This document shows positions 48,550 to 64,000 of a stretch of DNA of 64,000 nucleotides, one piece after another. The number at the start of each line of letters is the position of its first letter. Position 1 is the first letter of the stretch. The position numbers were made by a program, and so were the translations under genes. The notes under the pieces were generated by a model, which was given only the letters and a program-made list of their open reading frames with translations, had not been told where the DNA came from and did no database searches. Origin of the DNA: Bdellovibrionota bacterium (GTDB lineage Bacteria; Bdellovibrionota; FAC87; UBA2466); the NCBI GenBank assembly GCA_041749855.1, contig JBGTAN010000040.1:7921-71920 (forward strand), read 5' to 3'.

Positions 48550-48558
48550 TCTAAGCTC

Positions 48559-49617
48559 CTACTTGTTTGCCCACTCGGCTGCTATCAAATCGTGCAGCTG
48601 CGGTCGTATGCGACGAATTCTCTCATCGAGCCGTGAGGGGTGCACGCGATTGGTCGAGAAAACGGCAATGCCCCCCGATTTCGGATCGATCCACACACTC
48701 GCCCCTGGATATCCAAGGTGGCCAAAAGAGGCGGAAGAAAACAGATTTCCCGCAGAGGAACCTTTTTCCGATTTCGTGTCCCAGCCTAAAGCCCACGAGG
48801 AACCAGAAACTCGACTCGCGCGTTTTACAAAGGTTTGTGCGGTCGCCTGGCCAAGCCACTTGGACTGCCCCTCCACTGCCGCCAACCACTCGCGTGCCCA
48901 ATAACCCAGGCCGCGTGCCGTAGCGAAAAGGCCTGCGTGGGGAGTCACCCCGCCCAGGGCACTGCTGTTTTCGTCAAAAGGCACGCCCACCAGTGGCAGG
49001 CTTGCGCGCACTTCGGTGGCTACCACTTCCGCCTTTGCCGGAAGTTTGGGATAGACCACTTCCGTCAAACCCAGGGGTTGCTGCACCCGTTCCCGGTAAC
49101 AGACACCCAGATCCTGATTCCAAATCTCTTTGATTGCCTCACCCAAAACCAAGAAGCCTAGGTCACTGTAGGAGGTGGTCGTGTCGGGCGGCGCAACCAC
49201 CCATTCTGAGGCTCGCTTTCCCAACCAGCTGCGGATACCGACTTTTGCAAAATCGGTTTCATACAACGGCAACCAATCTTTCAGTCCCGAGGCATGACAA
49301 AGAAGAGAACCCAGCTCGATTTTCCCAATGGCGTTTGATCGCCACTCCGGAATCCACTTCGCAACAGTGTCGCTTAAAGCGGCTTTGCCCTGGTCTACTG
49401 CGAGTGCGAACAAGGAACCTGTGACCACCGATTTCGTAATTGACCCGATATCGAAGTAGCTCCCGGCGTGCACAGGCACAGCCTCAGGCCAGTAGCTCGT
49501 AGACCCCCCGCTCCATTCCCGACTGGACCCGCGACACTCTGCCCAGACTTGGTAGCCCGAGAAACAGAAAACACGCCTTGATTCCTCTAGGAGCTCTTTT
49601 ATGGGGTCGTTGTGCAA
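48559..49617 (-). CDS. serine hydrolase of the beta-lactamase/PBP family
   Basis: SxxK motif GSITKSVV and overall class-C-like fold features. Confidence 0.7.
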   Translation of the reverse strand: MHNDPIKELLEESRRVFCFSGYQVWAECRGSSREWSGGSTSYWPEAVPVHAGSYFDIGSITKSVVTGSLFALAVDQGKAALSDTVAKWIPEWRSNAIGKIELGSLLCHASGLKDWLPLYETDFAKVGIRSWLGKRASEWVVAPPDTTTSYSDLGFLVLGEAIKEIWNQDLGVCYRERVQQPLGLTEVVYPKLPAKAEVVATEVRASLPLVGVPFDENSSALGGVTPHAGLFATARGLGYWAREWLAAVEGQSKWLGQATAQTFVKRASRVSGSSWALGWDTKSEKGSSAGNLFSSASFGHLGYPGASVWIDPKSGGIAVFSTNRVHPSRLDERIRRIRPQLHDLIAAEWANK

Positions 49618-49632
49618 AAGGCTTCCCTGCGT

Positions 49633-50784
49633 TTAGGGAGTGATCGCCGATACCGCAGTCACCGTCGGCAAGAGGCGGTCTCTCAACTCGAAAGCATAGA
49701 TATTACCGTAGTTACTGAGGCCGTACACCCAGCCATCTTCCGCGGAACCCGCAAAACTGGCCAGCGTCCCTGCCCCGAGTGAAACCTGGGCTCGCACTTT
49801 CCCAGTTGCTCTATCCAGGAAATAAACCGGGTCCGTACTGGTTGGGAAAATCAGGGTCTCGCCCATCAGCAGAGGCGCGGCGGAAACGCCATTTTCGAAA
49901 GGAGTTGTCCATACTGGCTGCCCACTCCCCAGATCTAGCGCATAGAACTGCTTATTGACCCCGCCAAAATAAAGTCGGTTCCCGTCCACCGCAAAACCAG
50001 AATAGCTTCCGACGGGAAACACCCATTGGGTATCTCCGCTAATTCGATCCAGACTATAAACCCGACCATCAAACGTGGCGGCGATCACCCGCTTTTCGTC
50101 TACGAACGGCGTCATGTCGATATCGTAAAATCGCTCGCGGCTTTTCAGTCGTTTTTCCCAGAGAACTTTGCCTTTTTCCGCGCCAAGCGCCACGAGGGTG
50201 CCATCCGCGAACCCCTGATACACTTCGGTCGTTCCAAAAAGCGCAGGCCCCCCGCTACCGCGTATGGTCATCTTCTCATCGCCGCGGTGCGAATAATGCC
50301 ACAGCTCTTCGCCTTTGCTTTCGCTCAACGCATAGAGATCGCCACTCGCATTGATAGCGTAAACAAAGCCCCGAGTAATAGCCGGTGGTGAAAGCCATTC
50401 CATCTGCCCTTTAAAGCGCCACGCTTCGGAACCGTCCCGCGCGTTGAGCGCAATCAGATTTCCCTGCTTATCGCCGACAATAAGCTTTGATCGACCGTAG
50501 GAAAACGCGCCTTCGACGCCCCCAGGCACCGAGGTTTCCCACAGCACAAAACCTTTGGTGCGGTGAAAGGCAACCACGCGCCCTTGCTGATCGGCTACAT
50601 AGAGAATTTCTCCCAGCAGCAAAGGACGGGTACGTTCATAAGGTCCCAGTCCAAAAACGGTGGAAGATCGCATCGGGATGACGAACGTCGGGAGTACTTC
50701 CAACGAGGGCAACGCAGACGCCGCTTGTAATGAAAGACTGGAAAGCAACCAGCCAAACGCTAAAACACCCCTCACTTTGCGCAT
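49633..50784 (-). CDS. bamB: PQQ-like beta-propeller repeat protein (BamB-like)
   Basis: Signal peptide, repeated ..G.LYALD..G...W.. blades; directly downstream of a YfgM-like gene as in the yfgM-bamB synteny. Confidence 0.6.
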   Translation of the reverse strand: MRKVRGVLAFGWLLSSLSLQAASALPSLEVLPTFVIPMRSSTVFGLGPYERTRPLLLGEILYVADQQGRVVAFHRTKGFVLWETSVPGGVEGAFSYGRSKLIVGDKQGNLIALNARDGSEAWRFKGQMEWLSPPAITRGFVYAINASGDLYALSESKGEELWHYSHRGDEKMTIRGSGGPALFGTTEVYQGFADGTLVALGAEKGKVLWEKRLKSRERFYDIDMTPFVDEKRVIAATFDGRVYSLDRISGDTQWVFPVGSYSGFAVDGNRLYFGGVNKQFYALDLGSGQPVWTTPFENGVSAAPLLMGETLIFPTSTDPVYFLDRATGKVRAQVSLGAGTLASFAGSAEDGWVYGLSNYGNIYAFELRDRLLPTVTAVSAITP

Positions 50785-51603
50785 TTAAAGCTTCTCCGAG
50801 AGCAAAGGACTGTCCATGCGCCGCAAGTAATTCTTCGCCATGCGAGCGTATTCGGTGTTGGGGAAATCGGTAGCTACAGTTTGGTAAGTCGTCTTTGCGG
50901 CAGCGACCTCTTTCTTGGCCTCCAACGCCCGTCCCGCATTGACCATGGCAAGCGCTTTGCCCTGACCTCCGCTATCCACCACTGACTGGTAAGCCTTCAG
51001 CGCTTCATCCCAATTGCCCTGAATTTCCCAGGCGTAGCCTTGGTTCAGGTTGAGCAGATCGCGTTCGGCCGGGATAAGACCTGAAAAACCAAGCGCTTTC
51101 CCATACCATTCCACCGCCTGCGCACCTGCTTGCTGCACCGTTAAAGTAGGTTCGAGGTCTTGCTTGGTCTCATCGGCGAGCTTGGCCTCCTTGCCGGTCA
51201 CTTCTTTCACCCTCAACGATCGAACTTTGCGCTGAGCCGCATCGTAGTAATGATCCGCCACCGTGACGGCTGCCATAAACGAACCTCGCTGACCCGAACT
51301 GGTCTCATAGACCTCTTTCATTTTAGCGATGCGTTCGGGGCCTTTGAGCTCATTGGCCTCGAAATACGAAGTCCAACCTTTCGCTAGACGGCTGGAAGAC
51401 CAGCTTTTATAGGCCTCATAGCCAAACCCTGCCGCTACAATGAGTACCAGCAGGATGAGCAGCGGATTGCGATTCTGCGCCAAACTCTCCAGTGCCTGCC
51501 GACCTCGGCGCACAAAGGTGTCGGGCTTCTTCAAGGCTTTTCTATCAATTTTGTCCTGGCTCATATGACTTTGGAACCTACCTGAACTCTTGAGCGCTTT
51601 CAA
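50785..51603 (-). CDS. YfgM-like membrane-anchored TPR protein
   Basis: N-terminal basic region, single TM (LLILLVLIVAAGFGY), then a helical TPR-like body; synteny with the BamB-like gene. Confidence 0.5.
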   Translation of the reverse strand: MKALKSSGRFQSHMSQDKIDRKALKKPDTFVRRGRQALESLAQNRNPLLILLVLIVAAGFGYEAYKSWSSSRLAKGWTSYFEANELKGPERIAKMKEVYETSSGQRGSFMAAVTVADHYYDAAQRKVRSLRVKEVTGKEAKLADETKQDLEPTLTVQQAGAQAVEWYGKALGFSGLIPAERDLLNLNQGYAWEIQGNWDEALKAYQSVVDSGGQGKALAMVNAGRALEAKKEVAAAKTTYQTVATDFPNTEYARMAKNYLRRMDSPLLSEKL

Positions 51604-52876: not shown

Positions 52877-53861
52877 ACTGGCCTACTACGGTGTGTATTT
52901 TTTAAGGGGTTGGTGAGTTAGGTTAGTACGCCGTTGTGGTAGTTCACGTAGAGGGCAAGGTGATCTGCCAGAGCAGAGCGTTTTTTGGTGGTGCACCACG
53001 TTTTTCTAAACAGTCGATTCACATTGGCTCTGAACATGGCGGCTGTATGATTAAGACTAAATAGCGGGTCCCACTTTCCTTTTTTTAGCTCTCCTTGCCC
53101 GACCACGCAGCCCCGTCGACTTAGACTCGTCTTGTGAACTGCTTCGGGAAAACTCTTTCTCAGCGCTGGTGGGTAGGCAGGGTTTTGATCGGACTCAAAA
53201 AGAGCAGTAGGGCTTACGACTGGTTTTAAGGTGCTGAACATTTTTCGCAGCGCCAGGGGGCGGTGATCCGCACGAAGGCCATATTTCTCCAGCGCTTTTC
53301 GAGCGAGCAACCCCTTAGCAGGCATTTGAGAAACCTCGACGGCTAAAACCTTTCGGTTGAATGTAACTGCAAGACTGATACTGAGCGGTTTCATCTTCGA
53401 ATGCTCAAACGTTTCCATGTCATCAAATTGCACATGATCGATGGTTTTGGTTTGCAACGACTCTAGAAAGTGCGCGTGAAGACGCCGAGCTTGAATGCCT
53501 AGAAAGTGCAGCTTCCGGGCAACCGTTACTCGGTGAATGCCAAGTAAACGCGCAGCCCTTCGCATCGATACTCCAGACACAAGGAGCTTGCGAAGTGGCT
53601 CATTCACACGCCGCTTCTTCTGCCCAAAACAAGGATGGTGAGTGGCGTCAGACTGACACTTTCCACAGCTTCTACACTTCCATCTTCGGATAGTACGGCT
53701 GTCCGATTTCCTCAGGAAAGTACCATGGGAAACTAGGCGTCCAGATTTCAAACCATGAAGTCCACAATCACATCTGTCTTTTGCGCTGCTAGGCTGCATC
53801 ATCAGAGGATTGAGCAAGATACAGGCCTAAGATTCTTCACCCACTTTCAGGTAGGCCAGTT
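52877..53861 (-). mobile_element. IS1-family insertion sequence (single-ORF transposase) with 11-bp perfect terminal inverted repeats
   Basis: AACTGGCCTAC at 52877-52887 and its reverse complement GTAGGCCAGTT at 53851-53861. The element sits between the stop codons of two convergent genes (52876 and 53864). Confidence 0.6.
52918..53817 (-). CDS. IS1-family transposase (fused InsA-InsB-like single ORF)
   Basis: N-terminal Zn-finger + HTH resembling IS1 InsA (C.C.....C..C ... VSGVSMRRAARLLGIHRVTVARKLHFLG). C-terminal region resembles InsB (..NHTAAMFRANVNRLFRKTWCTTKKRSALADHLALYVNYHN). Confidence 0.65.
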   Translation of the reverse strand: MLNPLMMQPSSAKDRCDCGLHGLKSGRLVSHGTFLRKSDSRTIRRWKCRSCGKCQSDATHHPCFGQKKRRVNEPLRKLLVSGVSMRRAARLLGIHRVTVARKLHFLGIQARRLHAHFLESLQTKTIDHVQFDDMETFEHSKMKPLSISLAVTFNRKVLAVEVSQMPAKGLLARKALEKYGLRADHRPLALRKMFSTLKPVVSPTALFESDQNPAYPPALRKSFPEAVHKTSLSRRGCVVGQGELKKGKWDPLFSLNHTAAMFRANVNRLFRKTWCTTKKRSALADHLALYVNYHNGVLT

Positions 53862-53863
53862 TT

Positions 53864-55090
53864 TCAGTTGTAAGCGCATCGAAACCCCGTAGTGGGATCG
53901 GTTGTCAGCGGACCCAAACCCAAATCGACTTGAAATACACCCACAGGAATAGCCGTGGCATAGCCACCCCCTCGAATGATGACCCCGCCCGAAATTCCCA
54001 ACCAGCCATACCCCAATCCGCCGTACTCACCGGAGTTTTTCGAAACGTAGCTACCGAATGGGCCCCACATTTCCGGATGGTTCAAGCCAGAGGTCCAGGG
54101 TTGCTGGGAAATGTAGCCGCTGACTCCTTCAAAAGGCGGGCCCGCGGCAATATCGCCTTTCACCGACTCCCAGGCATTTCCGGCAATGTCCCAGATGGTC
54201 TCTCCGCTGGAAAGCACGTGGGTGCGCTTTTGCGTGAAATGCGCATGCGCATTGTTGGCGCAGTTCGCATTTCCCGTCCCAAAGCAAGGATCGCCATCGG
54301 TACTAGCGGCAAGCAGACCGAACGGAGCAAAGTCTGAGTGGCCGTGATTGATCCCATTTGCACCAGCGGTGGATCCATTGCTCCAGTTGAGTTGGACGCC
54401 CGCGCTTTCGGCAGTCTCGATTTCGCGAGCCACCGCCTGCCATTGCGCATTTGAGATCAGATCGAAACCAGGGCCGATATTGCGGCATCGGGTAATCGTT
54501 CCAGGAGTGCCGCCATTGTCATCGCGAGAAATAGATGCCCAGGGAAGACCTGCCATCTGCGAAACAGCGTTGCTACTACCGTCGTCTTTCATTTCATATT
54601 TCGCTACGCAAAAAGCTTCTACAACTCCCACGTCTGCGTTCGGACCCACTGCCAAATAGTTTGTGGGGCACGTGATACCAGGCACTCCCGAAGCCGTAGC
54701 CCCCGCTGTGTACTGGTAAGCACCGTTGTAGGAAAAGACTTGGTAGTGATAGGTCGCGCCATTGGTTAAAGCTGTATCGGCGGCCGTCGTCCAGGATCCT
54801 GAATACACCACCAAGTGGGTGCTACCCACCGCTTGTCCCGCGCTGTAAACCTCTCCATCGACAGGATCCCAGTGAACTTCCGAGTCCGGGTGGCGCACGA
54901 GCAAGTACCCATAGCTACCGGCCGCACTCTGCCAACTTGCGTTCAGCGCTTCCCACTGCGGATCCAGGTGCAATGGGGAGACCACAGAGGCAGCTGCCTG
55001 GCCTATGCACCCGCCGATGCACAAGCCCAGGCCGCAACCACTGGTGGAAAGAAGAAGGAAAACCCCCATCCCGGAAAGCCAAAACCTCAT
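53864..55090 (-). CDS. lipoprotein with C-terminal formylglycine-generating-enzyme (FGE/SUMF1)-like domain
   Basis: Lipoprotein signal MRFWLSGMGVFLLLSTSGCG; C-terminal ..GNAWESV..IIRGGGYATAI...TTGFRCAYN resembles FGE-sulfatase domain ends (RGGS.., GFRC). Confidence 0.55.
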   Translation of the reverse strand: MRFWLSGMGVFLLLSTSGCGLGLCIGGCIGQAAASVVSPLHLDPQWEALNASWQSAAGSYGYLLVRHPDSEVHWDPVDGEVYSAGQAVGSTHLVVYSGSWTTAADTALTNGATYHYQVFSYNGAYQYTAGATASGVPGITCPTNYLAVGPNADVGVVEAFCVAKYEMKDDGSSNAVSQMAGLPWASISRDDNGGTPGTITRCRNIGPGFDLISNAQWQAVAREIETAESAGVQLNWSNGSTAGANGINHGHSDFAPFGLLAASTDGDPCFGTGNANCANNAHAHFTQKRTHVLSSGETIWDIAGNAWESVKGDIAAGPPFEGVSGYISQQPWTSGLNHPEMWGPFGSYVSKNSGEYGGLGYGWLGISGGVIIRGGGYATAIPVGVFQVDLGLGPLTTDPTTGFRCAYN

Positions 55091-55132
55091 CAGAACCCCA
55101 AAGAGCGAGCAAGTCTCACGGCCCGAAGTATC

Positions 55133-55951
55133 TCAGGTCCCTGTCGCCAGGCTCCAGACCAGAATAAACACCGCTGCAAGAATGCGGTACCAAGCGAACA
55201 CGCTAAAGTCCGCAGCGCGCAGGTAAGTAAGCAAAAAATGGATGCTTAAAATTCCGGAAATCAAGGACGCCAGAAAACCGGCAATCAGATACGCCGAAGA
55301 GAATCCTGCAAAACCTGACTCAATCAGGTTTCTCATTTCGTAGGCCCCGGCTGCGGCAGTGATGGGTAAAGACAGCAAGAACGAGAAACGAGCCGCTGCT
55401 TCCCGATTAAAACCTAAGTATCGCCCCATCGTCATCGTCGAGCCTGAGCGCGAGACACCGGGAATCAGCGCGAACATCTGGGCAAACCCAATCAGCATCG
55501 CATCTTTCATCGTGAAGTCGTTTTGATTGCGATAGGGAGGAAAGCGCCCATCGATCCAGTACATGAGAAAACCGACTAAAGCCAAACTGATAGCAATCAC
55601 CAGCGGCGCGCGAAACGCGCCCTCAGAAAGATCATGAAACAGAAAGCCTGCCAACCCCGCTGGGATCGTAGCGCACATCAACATCCAAAACATCATGCGA
55701 TCCCGCTCAAACCCAATTTTACGTTCAAGGATGCTCAGTAGGCCTGCGCGCAAAAGCGCCATCCAATCCCCGAAAAAATAGCCAAGGACCGCGGCCATCG
55801 TTCCGAAGTGCAGAAAGACATCGAAAGAAAGTCCGGGGTCCTGCCAGCCAAAAACCCAGGGCACTAGCGCCAAATGCGCGGAACTGCTGATGGGAAGAAA
55901 CTCGGTAATACCCTGAACGAGCCCCAAAACAATGGCTTGAAAGACCGACAT
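55133..55951 (-). CDS. uppP: undecaprenyl-diphosphate phosphatase
   Basis: MSVFQAIVLGLVQGITEFLPISSSAHLAL.. canonical UppP/BacA N-terminus, 272 aa. Confidence 0.9.
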   Translation of the reverse strand: MSVFQAIVLGLVQGITEFLPISSSAHLALVPWVFGWQDPGLSFDVFLHFGTMAAVLGYFFGDWMALLRAGLLSILERKIGFERDRMMFWMLMCATIPAGLAGFLFHDLSEGAFRAPLVIAISLALVGFLMYWIDGRFPPYRNQNDFTMKDAMLIGFAQMFALIPGVSRSGSTMTMGRYLGFNREAAARFSFLLSLPITAAAGAYEMRNLIESGFAGFSSAYLIAGFLASLISGILSIHFLLTYLRAADFSVFAWYRILAAVFILVWSLATGT

Positions 55952-56030
55952 GCTGTGCCCCTAGTTGAAGCAGCCAATTTAACATAAGGGGAACAAACCA
56001 GGCACCTCCAACTTGAGCTCAGAGTCTGCC

Positions 56031-57200
56031 CTATTTTGGACTTTGCGCCTTGGCGGTCACTAAGCGCTGAACCGATTGGTAGTGATCGAGCAAACCTCGC
56101 AAAAGCCCGAGGTTGATTGCGGGAACCCGGTTGCCTCCAGCGCCTTCCATGTCGACGGCAGCAGTTAGGCTATTCAAAATCGCTTCCTCGGTGGCTTCGA
56201 TGACGCTCTTATAAACAGGATCCAAAGCGCTATCGCGGATCATTCTCACCTGGTCCGCGATATCCTTGGGCCGATGCGGTACTTCATTGGCCGTGGAAAA
56301 ACCGATGATGATCTCACCACTTCCGTGCGCACCGTAGCTCCCGGTTCGACCAATGCCCAACGCGGCTCTTCGGCAGACGCGATTCATTTGTTGGGTACTC
56401 AGCGGAAGATCCGTTCCGACCACCGCAATGATGGAGCCGTAGTTATTGACGCGACGAGAGTATTTGCCCTGAGCGATGGAGAGCAACCGCCCCACGGGGT
56501 ACCCATCCATCCGCAGGTCTTCCATGATCCCGAAGTTCGCGCACACCAGCACTCCCAAAGTGTAGTCTTTGCCACCCAAATTGAGCACACGGCTAGAGGT
56601 CCCAATACCTGCTTTGAAGTCGCAGCAGATCATTCCGGTGCCCGCACCGACGGCCCCCTCTTCCACTGGACCCGATGCAGCGTTGTCGAGCGCCGCAAAC
56701 ACATTCTGAGGCTTGATATGCAAGCCCACCGCATCATTTAGAAAGCTATCGTCGCACTCGCCAACCACCGGGATAATCACTTCCTGCTGTTCGCGAATTT
56801 CAGGATAGCGTTGAGCCATCCACTTTACGACGCTATCGCTCACGCGCCCCACCGACATGGTATTGGTGAGTGCAATGGGTGTTTCGATGAGGCCCCACTC
56901 GGAGAGCTGAGTAAACCCAGATACCTCGCCCGCGCCACTTAAGATGAATCCTCCGCTAATGAGTTTGCGGCTATAGATATCGTCGTTGGGAACGATGACG
57001 GTTACGCCTGTGCGCACCGGACCGTTGCCAGGCTTTCGTCGCCCCGATCCTTCGATCAAAGTGGTGTGTGCCACTCGCACGCCGGGAACATCCGTGATGG
57101 CGTTGAGAGGACCGGTTGGAAAATTCCCAATTCCCACACCGAGATCCCGCAGGCGGCAACGCGCCTTCGCGTCTTCCCGGTAACGTTCGAATAAATTCAT
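56031..57200 (-). CDS. P1/S58 (DmpA-type) family peptidase/aminopeptidase
   Basis: N-terminus ..LRDLGVGIGNFPTGPLNAITDVPGVRVAHTTLIEG.. and a size of ~390 aa match DmpA/BapA-type Ntn-hydrolases. Confidence 0.75.
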   Translation of the reverse strand: MNLFERYREDAKARCRLRDLGVGIGNFPTGPLNAITDVPGVRVAHTTLIEGSGRRKPGNGPVRTGVTVIVPNDDIYSRKLISGGFILSGAGEVSGFTQLSEWGLIETPIALTNTMSVGRVSDSVVKWMAQRYPEIREQQEVIIPVVGECDDSFLNDAVGLHIKPQNVFAALDNAASGPVEEGAVGAGTGMICCDFKAGIGTSSRVLNLGGKDYTLGVLVCANFGIMEDLRMDGYPVGRLLSIAQGKYSRRVNNYGSIIAVVGTDLPLSTQQMNRVCRRAALGIGRTGSYGAHGSGEIIIGFSTANEVPHRPKDIADQVRMIRDSALDPVYKSVIEATEEAILNSLTAAVDMEGAGGNRVPAINLGLLRGLLDHYQSVQRLVTAKAQSPK

Positions 57201-59296
57201 GTCTGACGCAACTTTCCAGCACTGCGCCAGCGCTGCATCGCGGGCGTCAAAATACGATTGATGAGGTTTTCGTAACTGAGTCCCGACCGCTCGGACATGA
57301 CGACTAGGTCGCTAAAGCCCGGCGTAAGTCCCGGCAAGGGATTGATCTCTAGGAAATAAATTCCGCCTTTGGAATCAATCTTAAAGTCTATTCGAGCCAC
57401 ATCCCGACATCCCAGGGACCGATAGACTTTGCGCGCAAAGGCCGCAATCTTTCTATCCATCTCCTTGCCAAGGCTCGCGGGGCACTCCAGCTGGAAGATA
57501 TTGTTCGAATCGTTCGGAAGGTTTTTCGCTTCGAACGAGTAAACCGGATACTGACCGGCATCGTGCAAAAATTTAATCTCCATCGGACCGATGAGGCGCA
57601 GCGTAGAGTTGCCCAAAACGCCAATCGTAAACTCCCGCCCCTCCACGTACTCCTCACAGAGCACAGGCTCGTGGAATCGGCCCCACAGCTCCTTAACGAG
57701 CACTTCGAGTTCCGCCTGATTCGAAACGACCGACTTTCCGCCAATCCCCTTCGACGTGCCTTCTTGATTGGGTTTCACAATCACGGGAAACGTCAGTCCG
57801 GGTTCGACCATCTTCCCGCCGGAATAAAGCCGATAGGCAGGCGTGAGCATCCCGTCCTGGCTTAAAAGCTTCTTCGTAATGGCTTTATCGAGTGTGATTG
57901 CCAAACACGTTGCGTCGCTCCCTGTGTGCTCCACACCGAGCAAATCGCAAATGGCGGGAACCTGCGCTTCTCGAGCGCGCTTATTCGAGCCTTCCGCGAT
58001 ATTGAAAACCACTTCGACATTCGCCGCTTTTAGGTTCTCGGCCAGCGTCTTATTCGCCTCAATACAAAGAATGCGTCCCACTTTCTTCTGCAAGACGGCG
58101 GCGATGGCATCGACTGTACTTTGAGAATCGAATTCGGCTTCGCGTTCGTAGTCGGGATCCCCGTGGCTCTTGCGCTTTAAGTTATAGACCAGCGCGACGC
58201 GCGGCATTTTGCTGGTAACAATGCGACGAGGGGATTTCGGGCTTTTGCCCAAGCGCTTCAAGCGAGAAAGAGCAGCGTCTAAGATCCTCAAAACCGTCTG
58301 ATCGTAGTCCAATCCGATCACTTTGGACGCTTCGAACACACCCGCACCCTGTTGGAGACTCGGCAAAGCGTTGAGTTCGAGGAAATAGATCTCCCCTTCC
58401 GGGGTGATTCTAAAATCCGCGCGTGCAAAATCCACAGCGCCCGTCACAGGAACAATGCGTTTCATCATCTCGATGAGTTGCGACCGCGTCGCGGGTTCCA
58501 GCTCCGCGGGGCAACGTACCGACACCGCATCATCATTGTGGTTTTTTAAGTCGTAGTCGTAAACATTGTCGCCGTACCCGATCTTGGGGGTGAGCACGTA
58601 TTCAATGGGTTCCAACACTCCCCCATCGCCAAGCCCCGCGATGTAGGGAACTGCAACGTCACGACCGAGAACAAATCGCTCCGCCAAAATCCCATGCGGG
58701 AAGGTCTTTAGACACTCCGCGGCGTAGGCGAGAAAAGCATCGGAGTCACGGCACACAGACCGCGAAGTAATCCCCTTACTCGATCCTTCATAGTTGGGCT
58801 TAACAAACACCGGATAGACCATGTCTGATGCGACGCTGGCCAGATCTTCTGGGCTGTTGATAAAGTACCCTTCGATGACGGGTACATTGCGAGTCGCGAC
58901 CATTTGCTTGGTCAAAAACTTATCCAGGGTCAGGAAACATCCATAGGGCCCCGAGCCGACGTATGGCAGCTGCAACTGCTCGAAAAGTGTGGGCCCTAAG
59001 CTTTCACGCCCAATGCCGTAATACCCCTCCGCGGTGTTAAAAACGATATCGGGCTTTAACTGGCAAAGCTGCTCGACCCAGTAACTTAAGCGGTCGGGCG
59101 AAGGCATCTCTAAATCAATGACTTCATGGCCAGCGCGGCTCAGAGCCCGATGGATGGCCCCGATCGTTTCGGGGGTATCAAACTCGGCCTGCTCAACGGA
59201 CTGGTCTCTTTTCAGATTATAAACAAACGCTATTTTCAATAGCCGCTCCTGGAGTAAGAAAGAGAAATGAAGCATTTTACCGACAAAGACAAACAT
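57197..59296 (-). CDS. tandem double ATP-grasp protein: two D-alanine--D-alanine-ligase-like modules in one polypeptide
   Basis: Each half ends with a Ddl-type C-terminal motif (module 1 ..GAVDFARADFRITPEGEIYFLELNALPSLQQG..; module 2 ..GCRDVARIDFKIDSKGGIYFLEINPLPGLTPGFS..). 4-nt overlap with the downstream DmpA-family gene. Confidence 0.7.
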   Translation of the reverse strand: MFVFVGKMLHFSFLLQERLLKIAFVYNLKRDQSVEQAEFDTPETIGAIHRALSRAGHEVIDLEMPSPDRLSYWVEQLCQLKPDIVFNTAEGYYGIGRESLGPTLFEQLQLPYVGSGPYGCFLTLDKFLTKQMVATRNVPVIEGYFINSPEDLASVASDMVYPVFVKPNYEGSSKGITSRSVCRDSDAFLAYAAECLKTFPHGILAERFVLGRDVAVPYIAGLGDGGVLEPIEYVLTPKIGYGDNVYDYDLKNHNDDAVSVRCPAELEPATRSQLIEMMKRIVPVTGAVDFARADFRITPEGEIYFLELNALPSLQQGAGVFEASKVIGLDYDQTVLRILDAALSRLKRLGKSPKSPRRIVTSKMPRVALVYNLKRKSHGDPDYEREAEFDSQSTVDAIAAVLQKKVGRILCIEANKTLAENLKAANVEVVFNIAEGSNKRAREAQVPAICDLLGVEHTGSDATCLAITLDKAITKKLLSQDGMLTPAYRLYSGGKMVEPGLTFPVIVKPNQEGTSKGIGGKSVVSNQAELEVLVKELWGRFHEPVLCEEYVEGREFTIGVLGNSTLRLIGPMEIKFLHDAGQYPVYSFEAKNLPNDSNNIFQLECPASLGKEMDRKIAAFARKVYRSLGCRDVARIDFKIDSKGGIYFLEINPLPGLTPGFSDLVVMSERSGLSYENLINRILTPAMQRWRSAGKLRQT

Positions 59297-59692
59297 CTTT
59301 TCATTCTCGCTAAAGGCGAGAAGCTGGTGGAGACACTCACGAGAGGTCTGGGAGAGCTAAACCTGGCAGGAGCGGTGATCTCCGGGCTAGGAGCACTTTC
59401 TCACGCGGAACTCGGCTACTACGAGCTTGCAACTCAATCCTACCTGCGAAAGACCTTCACCGATGAGTATGAGCTAATCAGTCTCACGGGCAATCTCTCC
59501 TTGAAAGACGGCGCGCCCTTTGTTCACGTCCATGCAGCGCTGGGAGACCGAGCTTTCAGTGTCTTCGGAGGCCACTTATTCGAGGCCGAGGTTGCCGTAA
59601 CGGCAGAAATTTCCGTTATTCCCTTGGCTATTGCTCCGGAAAGAGTGCTCGACCCCGCGATCGGGTTGGGTCTTATTTGCCGGCTAGGCTAA
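59267..59692 (+). CDS. PPC/DUF296-domain protein
   Basis: 141 aa; ..LVETLTRGLGELNLAGAVISGLGALSHAELGYY...APFVHVHAALGD.. resembles the PCC/DUF296 fold. Confidence 0.5.
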   Translation: MKHFTDKDKHLFILAKGEKLVETLTRGLGELNLAGAVISGLGALSHAELGYYELATQSYLRKTFTDEYELISLTGNLSLKDGAPFVHVHAALGDRAFSVFGGHLFEAEVAVTAEISVIPLAIAPERVLDPAIGLGLICRLG

Positions 59693-61034
59693 CGTTGGGA
59701 AACTTCCATTCCAGTACGAGGTCAGAACTGGGAACGGCGGGCTTTGCGCAATCGGTGAAAGCCACGTCGATGGTTTGTCCGTGGGTCATAAACCACATCT
59801 GCCGCAGACCTTCCTCATGCGCCACCACGCGGCCAAAGAGCATTCCCGGATAAAGCGGGTTCTCACAATTGCGAACTTGAATGCGCCGATAGGCTGATGA
59901 TGCCTTCGTCACCAACTCCAGCGTGGCGCGCTGCCCGTGGTGCCATTGGAACCATCCGAGCGCATGCAACCGCACTCCCACCGGCACTGCGGAAAAGAGA
60001 AGTACTACGGCAGCGAAAACCCCAACCACGTTTGGCTTGGGAAACCGTTGTTTTTGAAACGCCAGCGCCAGGAGCCAGAAGGTTCCCATCGTTAGGTACC
60101 ATCCCGGAGAAAAAAAGCCGTGCCCCACGTACACACTGAGCGACGCCGCCAGAAAAGGCAGGTACCACCCCCGCGTTTTCAAACCACTCAAGAAGGACCC
60201 GAGGGACTTCTTGTCCATCCAACGCAAAGCCAGTGTCCATACTCCCAAGGGCAACATCAAAGGAGCCGAGGAAATGCAAAGCGACCGAACGAGTTTCGCA
60301 AACGTATAGACGGGCAGGTAGCTGGGATTGACGGGCATCGCTCCCAGACGCAACACCAAATAGGCGGATCCCAGGACGATAAACGGAAGCAGCGCCAAGA
60401 GTCGCTTGCCCGGGCGCAACTGCGTGAGCCGCGGCTCGGCGAAAAGCATTGCTCCCAGAAACGCTAAGTGAAAAATCGCCGCTTCTTTGAACAAAAGCGC
60501 TGCTGCAAAGGCCGCAAGCGACACCCTCTGAAAGAATGCTTTGCCTGTGAGTCTTCCCTCCACGAAGGCCCAAGTACAAACCATCAGCAGAAAGACCTGC
60601 GGGACATTCATCAGCCCCTCGCCTACCCAGGTGAGACTGCCGAAGTGAATGGCAACCGAACTTGCGATGGCGACGCAGAACCACAACCCGCTGCGCACGT
60701 CGCCGGTCAAACGCTCGCAAATCCGCGCTCCGATTCCCAAAGTGACCAGGTAGAGCGCGACGAGTGTCGCCACCCAAAGTGCGTAGTGATAACCAAAAAG
60801 CCCGAAGAAGGCAGCGGCGAGAAACTTAAATCCCGGTCGAAAAAACCACGCAATCTCGGCACCGTCGTGAACCAGGGTTGGCCTCCATAGGTACCCCCAA
60901 CCTTCTTGGAGATAGCGAACCGAATTGCCGATGATCCACCAATCATCGTGGCGAAAAAAAACAAAAGGCAAAACCGCCGTGTAGAGCGCCGCCAAGGCGG
61001 CCAAACAGACCCACAAGCTGCGATGACTGGACAT
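59673..61034 (-). CDS. polytopic membrane protein, putative GT-C-fold glycosyltransferase
   Basis: 453 aa with at least 11 TM helices; N-terminal loop with ..FFRHDDWWIIGNSVRYLQEGWGYLWRP.. Confidence 0.45.
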   Translation of the reverse strand: MSSHRSLWVCLAALAALYTAVLPFVFFRHDDWWIIGNSVRYLQEGWGYLWRPTLVHDGAEIAWFFRPGFKFLAAAFFGLFGYHYALWVATLVALYLVTLGIGARICERLTGDVRSGLWFCVAIASSVAIHFGSLTWVGEGLMNVPQVFLLMVCTWAFVEGRLTGKAFFQRVSLAAFAAALLFKEAAIFHLAFLGAMLFAEPRLTQLRPGKRLLALLPFIVLGSAYLVLRLGAMPVNPSYLPVYTFAKLVRSLCISSAPLMLPLGVWTLALRWMDKKSLGSFLSGLKTRGWYLPFLAASLSVYVGHGFFSPGWYLTMGTFWLLALAFQKQRFPKPNVVGVFAAVVLLFSAVPVGVRLHALGWFQWHHGQRATLELVTKASSAYRRIQVRNCENPLYPGMLFGRVVAHEEGLRQMWFMTHGQTIDVAFTDCAKPAVPSSDLVLEWKFPNVSLAGK

Positions 61035-61274: not shown

Positions 61275-63233
61275 ATGAACATCTTGAAGAACGCTCAGCT
61301 TGTCCTCACCTTGGTAGTCGCTTTAGCGGCAACGAATTGCTCGCGCCGAATCATCAACGGCGATGGCAGAGACAACCAATCCGGCATTGAAGACTGCGTT
61401 GCGGTTACCGCCGAGATGATTCCCTTAAGTTTTTCTGGTTCGAGCATTACCCGGGGAACCGAGGTTCTTTGGCAGGTGACCGCCTCAGGTTGCGCTGCTT
61501 TCCGCCTCACCCGATCGGATGACGGCTCGATTCGTAGTTTTGCGAATAAGACCCATTTTACAAAGCGCTATACATCGGCGGCACAGCTCACTCGAGAAAC
61601 CATTCTCTTAACTCCGATTGCGGAAGATGGTTCCGCAGGTTCTGAAATGACCATTCAATCTGCTGCATTTACGGTGACAGGTAGCGGCGGCGGTGACGAT
61701 GGGGGTGATGTCAATGGTGACGATGAGGACGACACGAACGCTCCTTTGCTTTGCCGCGCGATTGCGGACTTCTCTACTCTAAATGCTCGCAAAAATGGTG
61801 CGAACTGGGATCCGGCCGCTCCTTGGGTTGGTTTCACTATCACGACGAATAAGCCGGCGTACTTGATGCCGTCAGGTGATTCGGTTGATACGACTTATTT
61901 CCCAAGCGGTATTCCTTCCGCTCAAGCTCTGACCTGGCACCGGGTAAACGGCCAGCTTCAAAAGGCGGACTTGAACGCGGTGGTATTTCGTGTGGCGCGC
62001 GCTTCCGATCCGACCGAGCAGGTCACTTGCGTCGCTCCGGTCAGCGTCAACATCGTACAGCCTCCGCCTCCGCCAGCTTTAAGCTGCAACGCATACGGCG
62101 TACCTGGATCCATTGCGGCTCCCGTGGGCGCATCGGGTAACTTACTGGCTCCGGTGAATGCAAATTTGCGCATCGATGCAAACCGTTTGACCTTTGTCAC
62201 GGGGGCTCGGCTTGCGGGCGTCCCTCACCCAGTCGCTTCTCAACCGTCTGCGAAACCGAGCCACAATCTCACGGTGGCTTTGAACACAACCGGATGGCAT
62301 GAAATTGAATTCGATATCGTCGATGGTGCGTCCGCCGGTGCCCCGGTGAGCTGCAGAGCAAACGTCTGGGTTTACGGCACTCAGCCTCCGCTCTACTGCG
62401 ATTTGCAGGGACCTGATAACATTTTCGTAGGCCAGGAAGCGGCTCTTCAACTCGTGGCCTACGGCCCTTACTACAATGGGAGCATCGACGGATTTGGCTA
62501 CGTACTGCCTGGAACGGGCAGACCTGTGGTTCAGCCCAAACCCGGATCGACGGTCACTTACGTCGGAAAAGTCGTAGGACCTCATGGAATCGGATACTGC
62601 ACCAAAACGGTAGTGGTGACTGTACCTCCGGTAAGCTGCCAGCTCATCGCTTCTGCGAGCTCGATTAACCCGGGGCAGACGGTAAAACTCAGCCTCTTGG
62701 CGCAAGGCACCTACCACGCCGCTCAAATTGACGTCCCTGGGGAAGGAACACGAAATGTTTTAAGCACGGCACTCTCAACGGATGTCACTTTGAACGATAC
62801 GGCTACTTTCACAGGTCGCTTGATTGGACCGACAGCGACGGCGATATGTACCCAAACGGTCGTCGTCAATCCGACTCTGGTGGGCGTGCATCTGGAGGAC
62901 TGGACAGATAACGACTATAACGACTCGGTTGTTTGCTTGAACGGCTACCTTAAGACCGTAGGCCAATACATCCTTTCCACGAAAACCCAGACGGTATCGG
63001 CCAATGCGTTTAAGTTTTCATCGCTGAACCATGACGTTCGGATCCGAGTCTTCGATTCCTTTGGTACCGTTCGCCAGACGATTGAGTACCAATCCTCGAG
63101 CAGACCGACTTTCAGCATCTATATGGAAAAGGACTGGAAGATTGAAGCGCTGTTTACGAGTCAGATCACTCACCGACAATACGACTCGAATCGTATACGC
63201 GTGAGCCCTTTCTGCACGACTTGGGGAAATTAG
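61275..63233 (+). CDS. large secreted lipoprotein-like protein with Ig-like repeat regions and DUF4114-like C-terminal motif
   Basis: Signal MNILKNAQLVLTLVVALAATNC; beta-rich repeats; C-terminal region carries ..LEDWTDNDYNDSVV.. reminiscent of DUF4114. Confidence 0.4.
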   Translation: MNILKNAQLVLTLVVALAATNCSRRIINGDGRDNQSGIEDCVAVTAEMIPLSFSGSSITRGTEVLWQVTASGCAAFRLTRSDDGSIRSFANKTHFTKRYTSAAQLTRETILLTPIAEDGSAGSEMTIQSAAFTVTGSGGGDDGGDVNGDDEDDTNAPLLCRAIADFSTLNARKNGANWDPAAPWVGFTITTNKPAYLMPSGDSVDTTYFPSGIPSAQALTWHRVNGQLQKADLNAVVFRVARASDPTEQVTCVAPVSVNIVQPPPPPALSCNAYGVPGSIAAPVGASGNLLAPVNANLRIDANRLTFVTGARLAGVPHPVASQPSAKPSHNLTVALNTTGWHEIEFDIVDGASAGAPVSCRANVWVYGTQPPLYCDLQGPDNIFVGQEAALQLVAYGPYYNGSIDGFGYVLPGTGRPVVQPKPGSTVTYVGKVVGPHGIGYCTKTVVVTVPPVSCQLIASASSINPGQTVKLSLLAQGTYHAAQIDVPGEGTRNVLSTALSTDVTLNDTATFTGRLIGPTATAICTQTVVVNPTLVGVHLEDWTDNDYNDSVVCLNGYLKTVGQYILSTKTQTVSANAFKFSSLNHDVRIRVFDSFGTVRQTIEYQSSSRPTFSIYMEKDWKIEALFTSQITHRQYDSNRIRVSPFCTTWGN

Positions 63234-63256: not shown

Positions 63257-64000
63257 TCAGATGCAAGTGCTACTGCGCCCATAGCGCCGATCCATCCTAT
63301 CAGCCAGTTGAGTGAGATCGAGAACCGTTAGAAAATCCGTGCTTTCCATATAGGGATCAGCAGCGGGCATGCAAGCTACTTTGGCACCTGCCCGCAAGTA
63401 GGACCGAAACAAGGGCGGAAAAACTGAATCGGGTGGGGACGCAACTTCGACGCAATCGCGCAGGCCTTTCACTTCAGCGTGTGGGAGTGGGCGAATACGA
63501 TACTGGTCAGTGACATGTCCTTGTTTTTGGAGCGTGTTCCAGACTCCCGCGATCTCCTTAGGTTCTTGCGTTCGAATACTCGTTGAGCCAAACAAGGTCG
63601 ATGCCCCACACTGGCGGGCGTATTCGGCAATCCCTTTCCACAACAGCAACAAAGTGGCCCCCGTGCGATGCGAGGCCTCTATGCAGGCCCTGCCCAGCTC
63701 CAGCTTAGTGCCTTCTGAAGCGAGAAAATGCTCTAAGTGAAACCTCTTTCCCGCGTAGAAGTGAGATGAAAACTGCGAGCTTGTCAGGCGATAGCAACCC
63801 ACAGTTTGACCGGTGTTACGGCACACAATGACAAGCTGGTCACAAACAGCGTCAATCTCATCGATGTCGAGCCCCGAGGGCAGCGTTCGATTGCAATTCT
63901 CCAAATGAAATACTTGATGCCTAAGTTTGAGAACCGCCAAAAGTTCTGACCAGGTATTCGTAGTGCGAATGCAATAAGGGCCGGAGACCAGTTCGAGAGG
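63257..64000 (-). CDS. OlsB-like GNAT N-acyltransferase (ornithine/amino-acid N-acyltransferase family), 5' end beyond window
   Basis: ..LKLRHQVFHLENCNRTLPSGLDIDEIDAVCDQLVIV.. resembles the OlsB/N-acyl-amino-acid-synthase N-terminus. The reading frame is open from the TTG at 63938-63940 to the window edge. Confidence 0.55.
   Translation of the reverse strand, partial: PLELVSGPYCIRTTNTWSELLAVLKLRHQVFHLENCNRTLPSGLDIDEIDAVCDQLVIVCRNTGQTVGCYRLTSSQFSSHFYAGKRFHLEHFLASEGTKLELGRACIEASHRTGATLLLLWKGIAEYARQCGASTLFGSTSIRTQEPKEIAGVWNTLQKQGHVTDQYRIRPLPHAEVKGLRDCVEVASPPDSVFPPLFRSYLRAGAKVACMPAADPYMESTDFLTVLDLTQLADRMDRRYGRSSTCI

Follow-up and report, generated by a model that had tools for sequence, protein, structure and literature searches.

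Layout of the locus

The window, i.e. the whole 64,000-nt stretch of Bdellovibrionota DNA that was analysed, contains on its reverse strand a gene for a tandem ATP-grasp ligase (positions 57197–59239, including the TGA stop at 57197–57199) and a gene for a 389-aa self-processing aminoacyl hydrolase of family S58 (DmpA/BapA/PH0078-type, PF03576; gene and open reading frame both 56031–57200). The stop codon of the former and the start codon of the latter overlap by 4 nt in an ATGA at 57197–57200, which was read directly from the sequence, agrees with a preliminary description of this DNA and is expected to couple translation of the two genes. The same description reported a 699-aa double ligase, corresponding to the open reading frame 57197–59296 (reverse strand); the double ligase itself was recovered, but the length was not. 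On sequence grounds the most likely start is a TTG at 59239, with the Shine-Dalgarno sequence AGGAG (59246–59250, reverse strand) 6 nt upstream of it, giving a protein of 680 aa. This length agrees with those of the tandem homologues (668–704 aa), and the 699-aa frame extends a further 57 nt upstream, where it overlaps a genuine PCC-domain gene of the opposite strand (59267–59692).

The gene uppP/bacA (55133–55951, reverse strand; Pfam BacA, E 3.9e-79) lies 79 nt downstream of the S58 gene. A scan of positions 54900–59800 gave no sigma-70-like promoter, and terminator-like sites in the same interval were no more frequent than expected by chance. The PADLOC anti-phage models had no matches among the ligase, the S58 protein, the PCC protein and the upstream membrane protein, and a reading of the locus as a defence system was rejected on this basis.

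Catalytic and substrate-site residues of the two enzymes

Pfam Dala_Dala_lig_C matched two stretches of the long open reading frame (E 3.6e-67). These correspond to an N-terminal module of the ‘N-like’ type (aa 1–338; 58226–59239, reverse strand) and a C-terminal module of the ‘C-like’ type (aa 339–680; 57200–58225, reverse strand), which are 30% identical to one another and carry the signatures RADF...YFLELNALPS (273–294) and RIDF...YFLEINPLPG (616–637), respectively, in the numbering of the 680-aa protein. Residue conservation was scored against E. coli DdlB, allowing Ser or Thr at position 150 and Asp or Glu at position 187. The N module keeps the equivalents of K97, K144, E148, S150, E180, E187 (as Asp), K215, R255, D257, E270 and N272, and the same catalytic set is intact in the C module (K489, T495, K572, R616, D618, E631 and N633). 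The ATP-binding, Mg-binding and catalytic residues of DdlB are likewise kept in both modules of 18 Bdellovibrionota-type and 16 soil tandem proteins, and in 12 proteins in which a ligase is fused to an S58 domain. Judged by these residues, both modules are apparently complete, catalytically competent amide ligases, in agreement with the earlier proposal of two complete Ddl-type modules, and the alternative that one half is degenerate was rejected because the full residue set is present in each.

In an AF2 model of the tandem protein (pLDDT 88) each module adopts the full three-domain Ddl fold, and Foldseek matched the modules to Ddl structures with a target TM of 0.82–0.86 (about 0.83) at ~25% identity. 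The modules are joined by a flexible linker (aa 332–342; 58214–58246, reverse strand), the sole internal segment of such length with a pLDDT below 50, and at a pTM of 0.54 their relative orientation is not fixed by the model.

When the halves were aligned to Ddl, the fold and the catalytic residues were found to agree but the substrate-pocket residues were not. In the HGxxGEDG motif H63 is replaced by Glu and E68 by Arg, invariantly in both halves (E71 and R78 in the N module, E416 and R423 in the C module). The N module additionally has N233 in place of Y216, S294 in place of G276, and Ala/Gly in place of S281/L282, while the C module keeps the glycine (G637). Tyr216 is the omega-loop specificity residue, which is Tyr in Ddl and His or Phe in depsipeptide ligases; at this position the N half has an Asn that is invariant among close relatives, and the C half has Asn here and mostly Gln in relatives. 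The pair S281/L282 constitutes the D-Ala2 carboxylate site of DdlB, and in the C half these positions are Ser-Asp in one register of the alignment and Phe-Ser in another, with S643-D644 being invariant. The substrate pocket is therefore predicted to be more acidic than that of DdlB, as a result of the replacement of H63 by Glu and the invariant Asp beside the S281 position of the C module. In DdlB, Glu15 binds the ammonium group of D-Ala1; here, conserved acidic residues of an AEFD motif occupy the equivalent place in the substrate-1 site.

Scored separately against NF002378 (Ddl, cut-off 243), the N and C halves reached 136.6 and 169.9 bits, and against TIGR01205 (cut-off 245.65) they reached 123.3 and 145.1, i.e. 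both were below the cut-off in each case; they were also far below the cut-offs of every Van ligase model. The whole tandem protein nevertheless passes the curated Ddl cut-offs, because its two sub-threshold modules add up. No match to the Ddl N-domain, PF01820, was listed for the tandem protein at E <= 0.01. The cut-offs, the absent PF01820 match and the altered substrate-site residues together indicate that the tandem ligase is not a true D-Ala-D-Ala ligase. A housekeeping Ddl was rejected on the basis of the sub-cut-off scores, the motifs and the genomic context, and the D-Ala/Ddl flavour of the preliminary description hardly survives these results.

The 389-aa protein matches PF03576 with an E value of 3.8e-112 and 375.2 bits (gathering cut-off 23.9) over profile positions 1–306 of 307. 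Its PDB matches were 2drh from P. horikoshii (5.8e-91), DmpA from O. anthropi (1b65, 2.4e-75) and BapA (3n2w, 7.6e-70), with which it shares the Pfam family, the Gly/Ser site, the Asn and the Ser-Gly-Asp/Glu motif. The self-processing site is intact: Gly255/Ser256 aligns with Gly249/Ser250 of DmpA, making Ser256 (codon 56433–56435, reverse strand) the predicted nucleophile and the new N-terminus after self-cleavage, and N222, S294-G295-E296 and E148 align with N218, S288-G289-D290 and E144 of DmpA. The Pfam match and this site confirm the DmpA/S58 Ntn-hydrolase identity given previously. Tyr146 of DmpA, a contributor to the oxyanion hole, is replaced by Asp150 here and by Asn in 2drh, and the subfamily of this enzyme accordingly appears to differ from DmpA proper. 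The closest solved relative, 2drh, was deposited merely as a ‘hypothetical D-aminopeptidase’ and is uncharacterised; the closest S58 homologues listed were near relatives only. No signal peptide is evident in the 389-aa protein. S58 enzymes remove residues from the N-terminus of peptides, with DmpA acting on N-terminal D-Ala, and S58 (DmpA/BapA) enzymes serve in biocatalysis; we know of no physiological substrate for them. The present enzyme differs from the characterised DmpA/BapA members in being coupled, or in relatives fused, to an ATP-grasp ligase, an arrangement that we did not find described for those members.

Pairing, fusions and neighbouring genes in relatives

More than 100 full-length tandem homologues were found, some of them in complete genomes, and an assembly fusion of two ddl genes was rejected for this reason. 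We picked 58 tandem loci by ligase motifs alone, and the next gene encoded an S58 protein in ~55 of these, in Bdellovibrionota, Planctomycetota, Desulfoluna, Myxococcota and Bradymonadia; conservation of the ligase-DmpA pairing, which had been put forward as a point to check, thus extends across several phyla. The S58 gene was missing from three of the tandem loci, and in four other loci an S58 gene of the same subfamily had no ligase within 6 kb upstream. The 4-nt stop/start overlap recurs in five close relatives and in at least six distant ones. The genes around the pair are otherwise unrelated between lineages, e.g. the cassette lies amid transposase and phage genes in Desulfoluna and beside peroxidases in Planctomycetia.

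In six loci a single N-like or C-like ligase is paired with S58, and there is also a large, multi-phylum family of ligase-S58 fusion proteins of ~705–720 aa (120 of the 120 matches listed were fused). The fusion proteins, e.g. P0256 of Geoalkalibacter halelectricus, have the same ligase signature (Glu at H63, Arg at E68 and Ser at G276) and an S58 domain of the same subfamily (45–49% identity), but they contain a single ligase module, covalently joined to S58. They are equally uncharacterised and their source annotations are ‘P1 family peptidase’ or ‘D-alanine--D-alanine ligase’ only. An AF2 model of one fusion protein (pTM 0.56) has good domain folds with no confident inter-domain packing, as in the tandem protein. 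S58 follows the ligase in nearly every locus and in every fusion seen. The single-ligase pairs and fusions show that the core system needs no more than one ligase step. Full-text literature searches returned no published description of the ligase-S58 pairing, which the earlier reader of the sequence had not recognised as a described pathway; the pair is widespread in bacteria and is not known to have been studied.

Several relatives have genes for polyamine or basic-amine enzymes beside the pair. A gene resembling acetylpolyamine amidohydrolases is directly 3' of the fusion gene in 10 of the 12 loci with enough DNA, and the best, full-length match of this partner is to acetylpolyamine amidohydrolases (PDB 6phr, 1.9e-63). 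In 17 Pseudobdellovibrionaceae loci an agmatinase-like gene is directly upstream, and a PotABCD-like polyamine transporter is encoded there divergently. Genes for KamA-family aminomutases sit next to the ligase gene in two loci only, one of which also has an NspC-like decarboxylase; no KamA-like gene was found in the window or in the tandem loci, and none of these polyamine-related genes is present in the window. Each polyamine-gene association is limited to one clade and may represent few evolutionary events. These neighbours hint, by genomic context, at basic-amine or polyamine substrates rather than D-amino-acid peptides. In ~7 loci of one soil clade a GshB-like ATP-grasp gene comes directly after S58, which makes a series of three ligase modules; this is explained by peptide assembly no less well than by basic-amine substrates. 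A third conserved partner across lineages was rejected, as all partners are clade-specific.

The cell-envelope link suggested by the downstream, same-strand uppP holds for the closest family and does not extend further. In that family (~30 loci at >=60% identity) uppP follows the S58 gene, in five loci with a 4-nt overlap between the S58 stop and the uppP start, and it is probably co-transcribed with the pair there and not elsewhere; UppP is absent from beside the pair in Bacteriovoracaceae, Planctomycetota, Desulfoluna, Myxococcota and the soil relatives. Mpl-like and AmpH/PBP4B-like genes are found 6–9 kb away, and the synteny of UppP, Mpl and AmpH is restricted to one family. The link is lineage-specific and uppP is outside the conserved core.

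A possible synthetase/hydrolase couple and its known counterparts

What was observed directly is the architecture, the full sets of catalytic residues, the conservation of the pairing and of the fusions, and the genes that adjoin the pair in relatives; from these we infer a reaction, a direction for the S58 enzyme and all of the substrates. The two genes would be co-translated as a self-contained enzyme module. Each ligase module would convert a carboxylate to an acyl phosphate and couple it with an amine, allowing two amide bonds per protein. Because the acidic residues of the AEFD motif stand at the place of DdlB Glu15, the acyl group probably comes from an amino acid whose amine is free, and such a donor would therefore give a product with a free N-terminal amine. 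The amine acceptor would most likely be basic (a polyamine, a diamine or a basic or beta-amino acid) and not D-alanine. The S58 enzyme would cleave itself at Gly255/Ser256, after which Ser256 could remove the N-terminal aminoacyl group from the ligase product or a closely related compound. In this way the pair would probably make and break one small compound, and we put the probability that synthetase and aminoacyl hydrolase form a self-contained couple, sharing one small conjugate with a free N-terminal amine, at roughly 0.45, i.e. a little under even. Against this, co-expressing a ligase with an enzyme that hydrolyses what the ligase makes would cost ATP to no purpose unless regulated, S58 and the tandem ligase each occur alone in the few loci mentioned above, and the AF2 models give no confident domain packing. 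More tentatively, the module in its tandem, single and fused forms could possibly make and remove a new class of compounds in which an aminoacyl (perhaps beta- or D-aminoacyl) group is attached to a polyamine or a basic amino acid; these compounds would be the physiological substrates of DmpA/BapA enzymes.

The preliminary description proposed a short-peptide assembly line, in which the modules would add amino acids in turn to give a tripeptide, or an oligopeptide with further ligases, and S58 would mature it by taking off an N-terminal residue or turn it over. Two distinct, intact ligase modules, the GshB-like gene of the soil loci, and the general knowledge that Ddl-fold enzymes join amino acids and that S58 enzymes cut N-terminal residues are consistent with this; however, one ligase with S58, separate or fused, is complete and very common, so that the core product is something other than a tripeptide. 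Nor is a racemase, or any other gene dedicated to supplying D- or beta-amino acids, conserved next to the pair; what recurs there in relatives are enzymes of polyamines or basic amines, and the D-Ala2 carboxylate residues are changed in the N module. We consider peptide assembly unlikely, and the associated role of the peptidase in self-resistance found no support.

A salvage route, in which S58 acts first on a peptide or amide, imported or endogenous, and releases an amino acid or amine that the ligases re-attach elsewhere with ATP, would avoid a futile cycle and fit the covalent fusions, and amine-freeing amidohydrolases (acetylpolyamine-amidohydrolase-like and agmatinase-like) and an uptake system adjoin the module in relatives. 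It is nevertheless improbable given that the ligase precedes S58 almost everywhere and that a peptide transporter is not conserved beside the two genes. Slightly more doubtful still is reversible protein modification, i.e. addition of an amino acid such as beta-lysine to a protein lysine or terminus in the style of RimK, LysX or EF-P and its removal by S58. ATP-grasp enzymes include protein-modifying ligases, relatives have weak TTL and RimK Pfam matches, partners of the HDAC family can be protein-lysine deacetylases, and the KamA-like genes are potential beta-lysine suppliers in their two loci; but no target-protein gene is conserved beside the pair, the HDAC-like partner is the one that best matches acetylpolyamine amidohydrolases, the nearest relatives by fold and sequence are small-molecule Ddl enzymes, and the patchy, mobile-looking distribution speaks against a core protein target. 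Wall remodelling of the VanA/VanX kind (ligases making D-Ala-D-X, S58 destroying D-Ala-D-Ala and UppP aiding lipid-carrier recycling) could draw on the Ddl and Van ligases being the best sequence and structure matches, on the action of DmpA on N-terminal D-Ala, and on the UppP coupling and the Mpl- and AmpH/PBP4B-like genes of close relatives, but is scarcely tenable in view of the sub-cut-off scores, the missing PF01820 match, the replaced H63 and E68, the lack of VanH, VanT and VanRS, the one-family synteny, the Desulfoluna and Planctomycetia contexts, and the acetylpolyamine-amidohydrolase-like partner of the fusions.

Returning to the synthetase/hydrolase couple, the ligase-S58 link, which is an operon in hundreds of genomes and a fusion in many, offers through the ligase product a direct handle on the natural substrate of S58, so that the pair could reveal what DmpA-type enzymes act on. 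The identity of that product would give Ddl-fold ligases a class of substrates new to them and would put right the systematic misannotation of these proteins (‘D-alanine--D-alanine ligase’, ‘ATP-grasp domain-containing protein’, ‘P1 family peptidase’); should the acceptor be a polyamine, bacterial polyamine metabolism would gain a new branch.

Among known systems, Ddl and Van ligases (DdlB 2dln, the DdlA/B 8ev* entries and VanA 1e4e) have the same three-domain ATP-grasp fold and identical residues for ATP, Mg and phosphoryl transfer; in contrast, the present ligase has two modules per chain and is coupled to S58, Y216 is replaced by Asn, Gln or Ser across the family, and its gene lies outside any mur/dcw cluster. 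Plant DDL likewise combines two Ddl modules within a single chain, but is not known to have an S58 partner. VanA-VanX pairs a Ddl-fold ligase with a hydrolase of a related dipeptide in one operon, a layout like that described here; VanX, however, is a zinc dipeptidase of family M15, unlike S58, and the system needs VanH and VanRS; neither the window nor any of 80 related loci had VanH/VanT, VanX (M15) or VanRS among the neighbouring genes. The glutathionylspermidine synthetase/amidase and trypanothione synthetase-amidase join an ATP-dependent amide ligase to a hydrolase of its own amide, within a single protein or operon, with a polyamine acceptor and, in trypanothione synthesis, two successive acylations. 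Their parts, a CHAP cysteine amidase and a ligase of a different ATP-grasp-like family, are not homologous to those described here; GspS synthetase and CHAP amidase domains are absent from the two proteins, in which Pfam finds Ddl-type ATP-grasp and S58 alone. The likeness is one of functional analogy only, in that ligase and hydrolase are joined (here by the operon overlap, in relatives by fusion), and the two together would control how much of one small conjugate is present, as in the case of glutathionylspermidine synthetase/amidase.

Gene layout and the start of the tandem ligase

The tandem ligase, the S58 protein and a BacA/UppP protein are encoded by three consecutive minus-strand ORFs (57197-59296, 56031-57200 and 55133-55951, respectively). 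Pfam assigned two stretches of the D-Ala-D-Ala-ligase C-terminal ATP-grasp domain to the first (E 3.6e-67), matched the second over the whole Peptidase_S58 profile (E 3.8e-112) and identified the third as BacA/UppP; the sequence ATGA at 57197-57200 is common to the ligase stop and the S58 start. These results bear out the preliminary description of a double Ddl-like ATP-grasp protein whose stop overlaps the start of a DmpA/S58 enzyme, but not its length of 699 aa. Reading from the sequence, AGGAG lies 6 nt ahead of a TTG at 59239, and the full-length homologues listed have 668-704 aa and align to ∼96-97% of the 699-aa query; we therefore conclude that the long ORF begins too early and that the ligase has 680 aa, with an N-like module (aa 1-338) followed by a C-like module (aa 339-680). 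The extra 57 nt of the long ORF overlap a genuine PCC-domain gene (PF03479, E 6e-27) on the opposite strand (59267-59692, plus strand).

The PCC-domain gene lies antisense between the ligase and a membrane-protein gene; 27 nt separate it from the TTG start, and it shares 20 nt with the 3' end of the membrane-protein gene. Its homologues with 60-65% identity are found nearby in L001 and L025 (L numbers denote loci from relatives). The membrane protein (59673-61034, minus strand) has 453 aa, is multi-pass, gave no match in Pfam, NCBIfam or PADLOC, and by eye resembles GT-C/ArnT-type glycosyltransferases. In the nearest relatives (L002-L005, also L025) its homologues (cluster 13) are encoded immediately upstream of the tandem ligase and on the ligase strand. 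Elsewhere in the window, a GNAT protein (63257-63940, minus strand) has matches to Acetyltransf_5 and to the FeeM family of N-acyl amino acid synthases, and its products may be N-acyl amino acids; two large predicted secreted or lipoproteins of 408 and 652 aa (53864-55090, minus strand; 61275-63233, plus strand) had no significant Pfam match. The 299-aa ORF at 52918-53817 (minus strand), an apparent insertion between a lipoprotein gene and OMP genes, has zinc-finger-like motifs rich in Cys as well as an HTH (weak Pfam HTH_8) and resembles IS/transposase-type proteins.

Catalytic and substrate-site residues

An alignment of E. coli DdlB (reference sequence identical to PDB 2dln) with the two halves of 18 homologues shows that neither half is degenerate: both keep K97, K144, E148, S150 (S/T), E180, E187 (D/E), K215, R255, D257, E270 and N272 (DdlB numbering), and the same set is kept in 16 tandems from soil and in 12 fusion proteins (one N-like module and S58 in a single ORF, ∼705-720 aa). 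The halves are only 30% identical to each other, which makes them old paralogues rather than a recent duplication. When predicted structures were superposed, each module matched the whole Ddl chain with a TM score of ∼0.83 at roughly 25% identity. The AlphaFold model of the tandem protein has a pLDDT of 88, with a disordered linker (residues 332-342) and a pTM of 0.54, a value so low that the relative position of the two modules is undefined. Nor is the long ORF an assembly artefact, since independent assemblies yield over 100 full-length homologues of the tandem, with identities as low as 44%; the tandem form is present on the Desulfoluna limicola chromosome and on a 3.7-Mb Bacteriovoracaceae chromosome. 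A Pirellulales contig (L067:8001-10145) carries an unfused version of the tandem, a pair of neighbouring single-ligase genes with ∼30% identity to it; the contig ends ahead of any S58 position.

The assignment to the D-Ala-D-Ala-ligase type holds for the fold and the ATP-grasp residues, but not for the substrate site. Scanned separately, the halves scored 136.6 and 169.9 bits against NF002378 (cut-off 243) and 123.3 and 145.1 against TIGR01205 (cut-off 245.65); it is only by summing the two scores that the whole protein clears the Ddl cut-offs. Pfam listed no match to the Ddl N-domain (PF01820) for the tandem ligase. At DdlB positions, the family has the invariant signature H63 to Glu and E68 to Arg, with an invariant AEFD(T/S) motif at Glu15; Y216 is replaced by Asn, Gln or Ser, G276 by Ser in N-like modules, and the S281/L282 site, which holds the D-Ala2 carboxylate in DdlB, is changed. 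Together these changes would give a more acidic pocket, and judged by its sequence the tandem protein is not strictly a D-Ala-D-Ala ligase. Homologues are named 'D-alanine--D-alanine ligase', 'ATP-grasp domain-containing protein' or 'P1 family peptidase' in the sources.

The closest solved structure to S58 is P. horikoshii 2drh (5.8e-91), deposited as a 'hypothetical D-aminopeptidase', followed by DmpA (2.4e-75) and BapA (7.6e-70). In the alignment, Gly255|Ser256, Asn222, Ser294-Gly295-Glu296 and Glu148 correspond to G249|S250, N218, S288-G289-D290 and E144 of DmpA, whereas Tyr146 of DmpA is matched by Asp150. S58 is thus predicted to be a self-processing hydrolase of N-terminal aminoacyl groups, and as no signal peptide was evident when its N-terminus was inspected it is predicted to be cytoplasmic.

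Conservation of the pairing and its neighbours

The ligase-S58 pair is kept in relatives. Among 80 loci fetched with ligase-only motifs, ∼58 were tandem loci with sufficient sequence downstream, and in ∼55 of these the ligase gene is directly followed by S58, the exceptions being L032, L059 and L061; in L030 the gene after the tandem ligase is itself a ligase-S58 fusion. A metagenome scan added ∼28 tandem+S58 loci (39-47% identity), although it was seeded in the S58 domain and so cannot be used for counting the pairing. The window's nearest likeness is in Pseudobdellovibrionaceae MAGs (86-87% identity), and carriers span Bdellovibrionota, Planctomycetota, Desulfobacterota, Myxococcota and Bradymonadia, with otherwise unrelated surroundings, e.g. 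peroxidases in a planctomycete, or a transposase and phage genes in Desulfoluna. Culturable carriers are Desulfoluna limicola, Halobacteriovorax sp. and Geoalkalibacter halelectricus.

The link is far broader than the tandem form. Single N-like (L066, L079) or C-like (L096, L101, L135, L153) ligases precede S58, and in L030, L076 and L078 one ORF encodes a single N-like ligase joined to S58. A database search with one fusion protein gave at least 120 matches; those listed are all fused, all at least 54% identical, and come from many phyla: Acidobacteriota, Desulfuromonadales (including the cultured Geoalkalibacter halelectricus), Omnitrophota, Phycisphaerae, Kiritimatiellia, Sumerlaeia, Cyanobacteriota and others. 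Gene fusion together with operon conservation across phyla strongly indicates a single process served by both activities.

UppP, previously taken as a hint of a cell-envelope role, does follow S58 in ∼30 loci at ≥60% identity, its start overlapping the S58 stop by 4 nt in L008, L010, L012, L022 and L026, and it is probably co-transcribed with the pair in the closest family. However, it is absent beside S58 in all more distant carriers examined and therefore lies outside the conserved system. A further syntenic block (47146-51603, minus strand), also found after the cassette in many Pseudobdellovibrionaceae loci, encodes a TPR protein, BamB, a beta-lactamase-family protein with weak AmpH/PBP4B-like matches and an Mpl-like murein-peptide ligase (331 bits, cut-off 388.7).

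Substrate clues and a possible make-and-break process

All substrate clues come from relatives, and the window contains none of the genes concerned. An HDAC-family gene lies directly 3' of the fusion gene in 10 of the 12 fusion loci with enough DNA; over its full length the best PDB matches of its product are acetylpolyamine amidohydrolases (APAH; 6phr, 1.9e-63; 9gkz, 3q9b, 3men). In 17 Pseudobdellovibrionaceae loci an arginase-family gene, closest to agmatinase and guanidinobutyrase but under their curated cut-offs, lies directly upstream of the pair on the same strand, adjoined by a divergent PotABCD-like transporter whose PotA is above the polyamine ABC cut-off. Genes for KamA-family radical-SAM aminomutases stand next to the ligase in L064 and L076, as does one for an NspC-like decarboxylase in L064; in L066 a PLP decarboxylase is encoded two genes upstream of the ligase. 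These neighbours point to basic amines (polyamines or basic/beta-amino acids), and a glutathione-synthetase-type ATP-grasp gene after S58 in ∼7 soil loci points to peptide assembly. Since each clue is limited to one clade, none is decisive.

Several of these loci have further features. In Legionellaceae L064 (4625-10145), an ABC exporter, the KamA-like aminomutase, a single N-like ligase (47% identity to the window's N half) and the NspC-like decarboxylase, in that order, look like a small gene cluster for the biosynthesis of a beta-amino-acid/amine conjugate; the locus lacks S58 but has a C-like ligase 5 kb off on the opposite strand. In L120 (22-2300), an HDAC-family gene (39% identity to the APAH-like partner) directly precedes and overlaps S58 with no ligase between. 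In one soil clade (L116, L122, L123, L130, L131, L144), the glutathione-synthetase-type gene (e.g. L131:8372-9418) is followed by a GAF-GGDEF gene, and a double response-regulator gene lies upstream. The window encodes a gingipain-type Peptidase_C25 with its own propeptide domain (41995-43998, plus strand); that a C25 peptidase is also found downstream of the fusion gene and APAH-like neighbour in L085 is probably a coincidence.

Our main reading, to which we give a probability of about 0.45, is that the ligase builds a product and S58 cleaves the aminoacyl group of the same product. Each module would phosphorylate a carboxylate and then couple it to an amine, the tandem protein forming two amide bonds. 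The acidic motif conserved at the donor site suggests that the donor is an amino acid whose amine is free; in that case the product would bear a free N-terminal amine, as S58 enzymes need, and S58 would remove its N-terminal aminoacyl group. That the acceptor is a polyamine or another basic amine is a more tentative proposal, less likely than the main reading. A pure tri- or oligopeptide line, with which the glutathione-synthetase-type neighbour would fit but the polyamine-related neighbours less well, seems improbable; a sequential salvage route is doubtful indeed, and reversible protein modification slightly more so. Least probable is a VanA/VanX-like cell-wall route. The cell-envelope idea has only the lineage-specific UppP synteny behind it.

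A literature search found no description of the ligase-S58 pairing, in keeping with the preliminary description, in which the arrangement was not recognised as a described pathway. Through the pair, the natural substrates of S58 enzymes can be approached by experiment. Both enzyme superfamilies are already known, and joining a ligase to a hydrolase has a precedent: in glutathionylspermidine synthetase/amidase, a ligase is fused to a hydrolase of the same amide. The ligase-S58 pair would follow the same logic, and this precedent shows that fusing a synthesising to a hydrolysing enzyme does not necessarily create a futile cycle.
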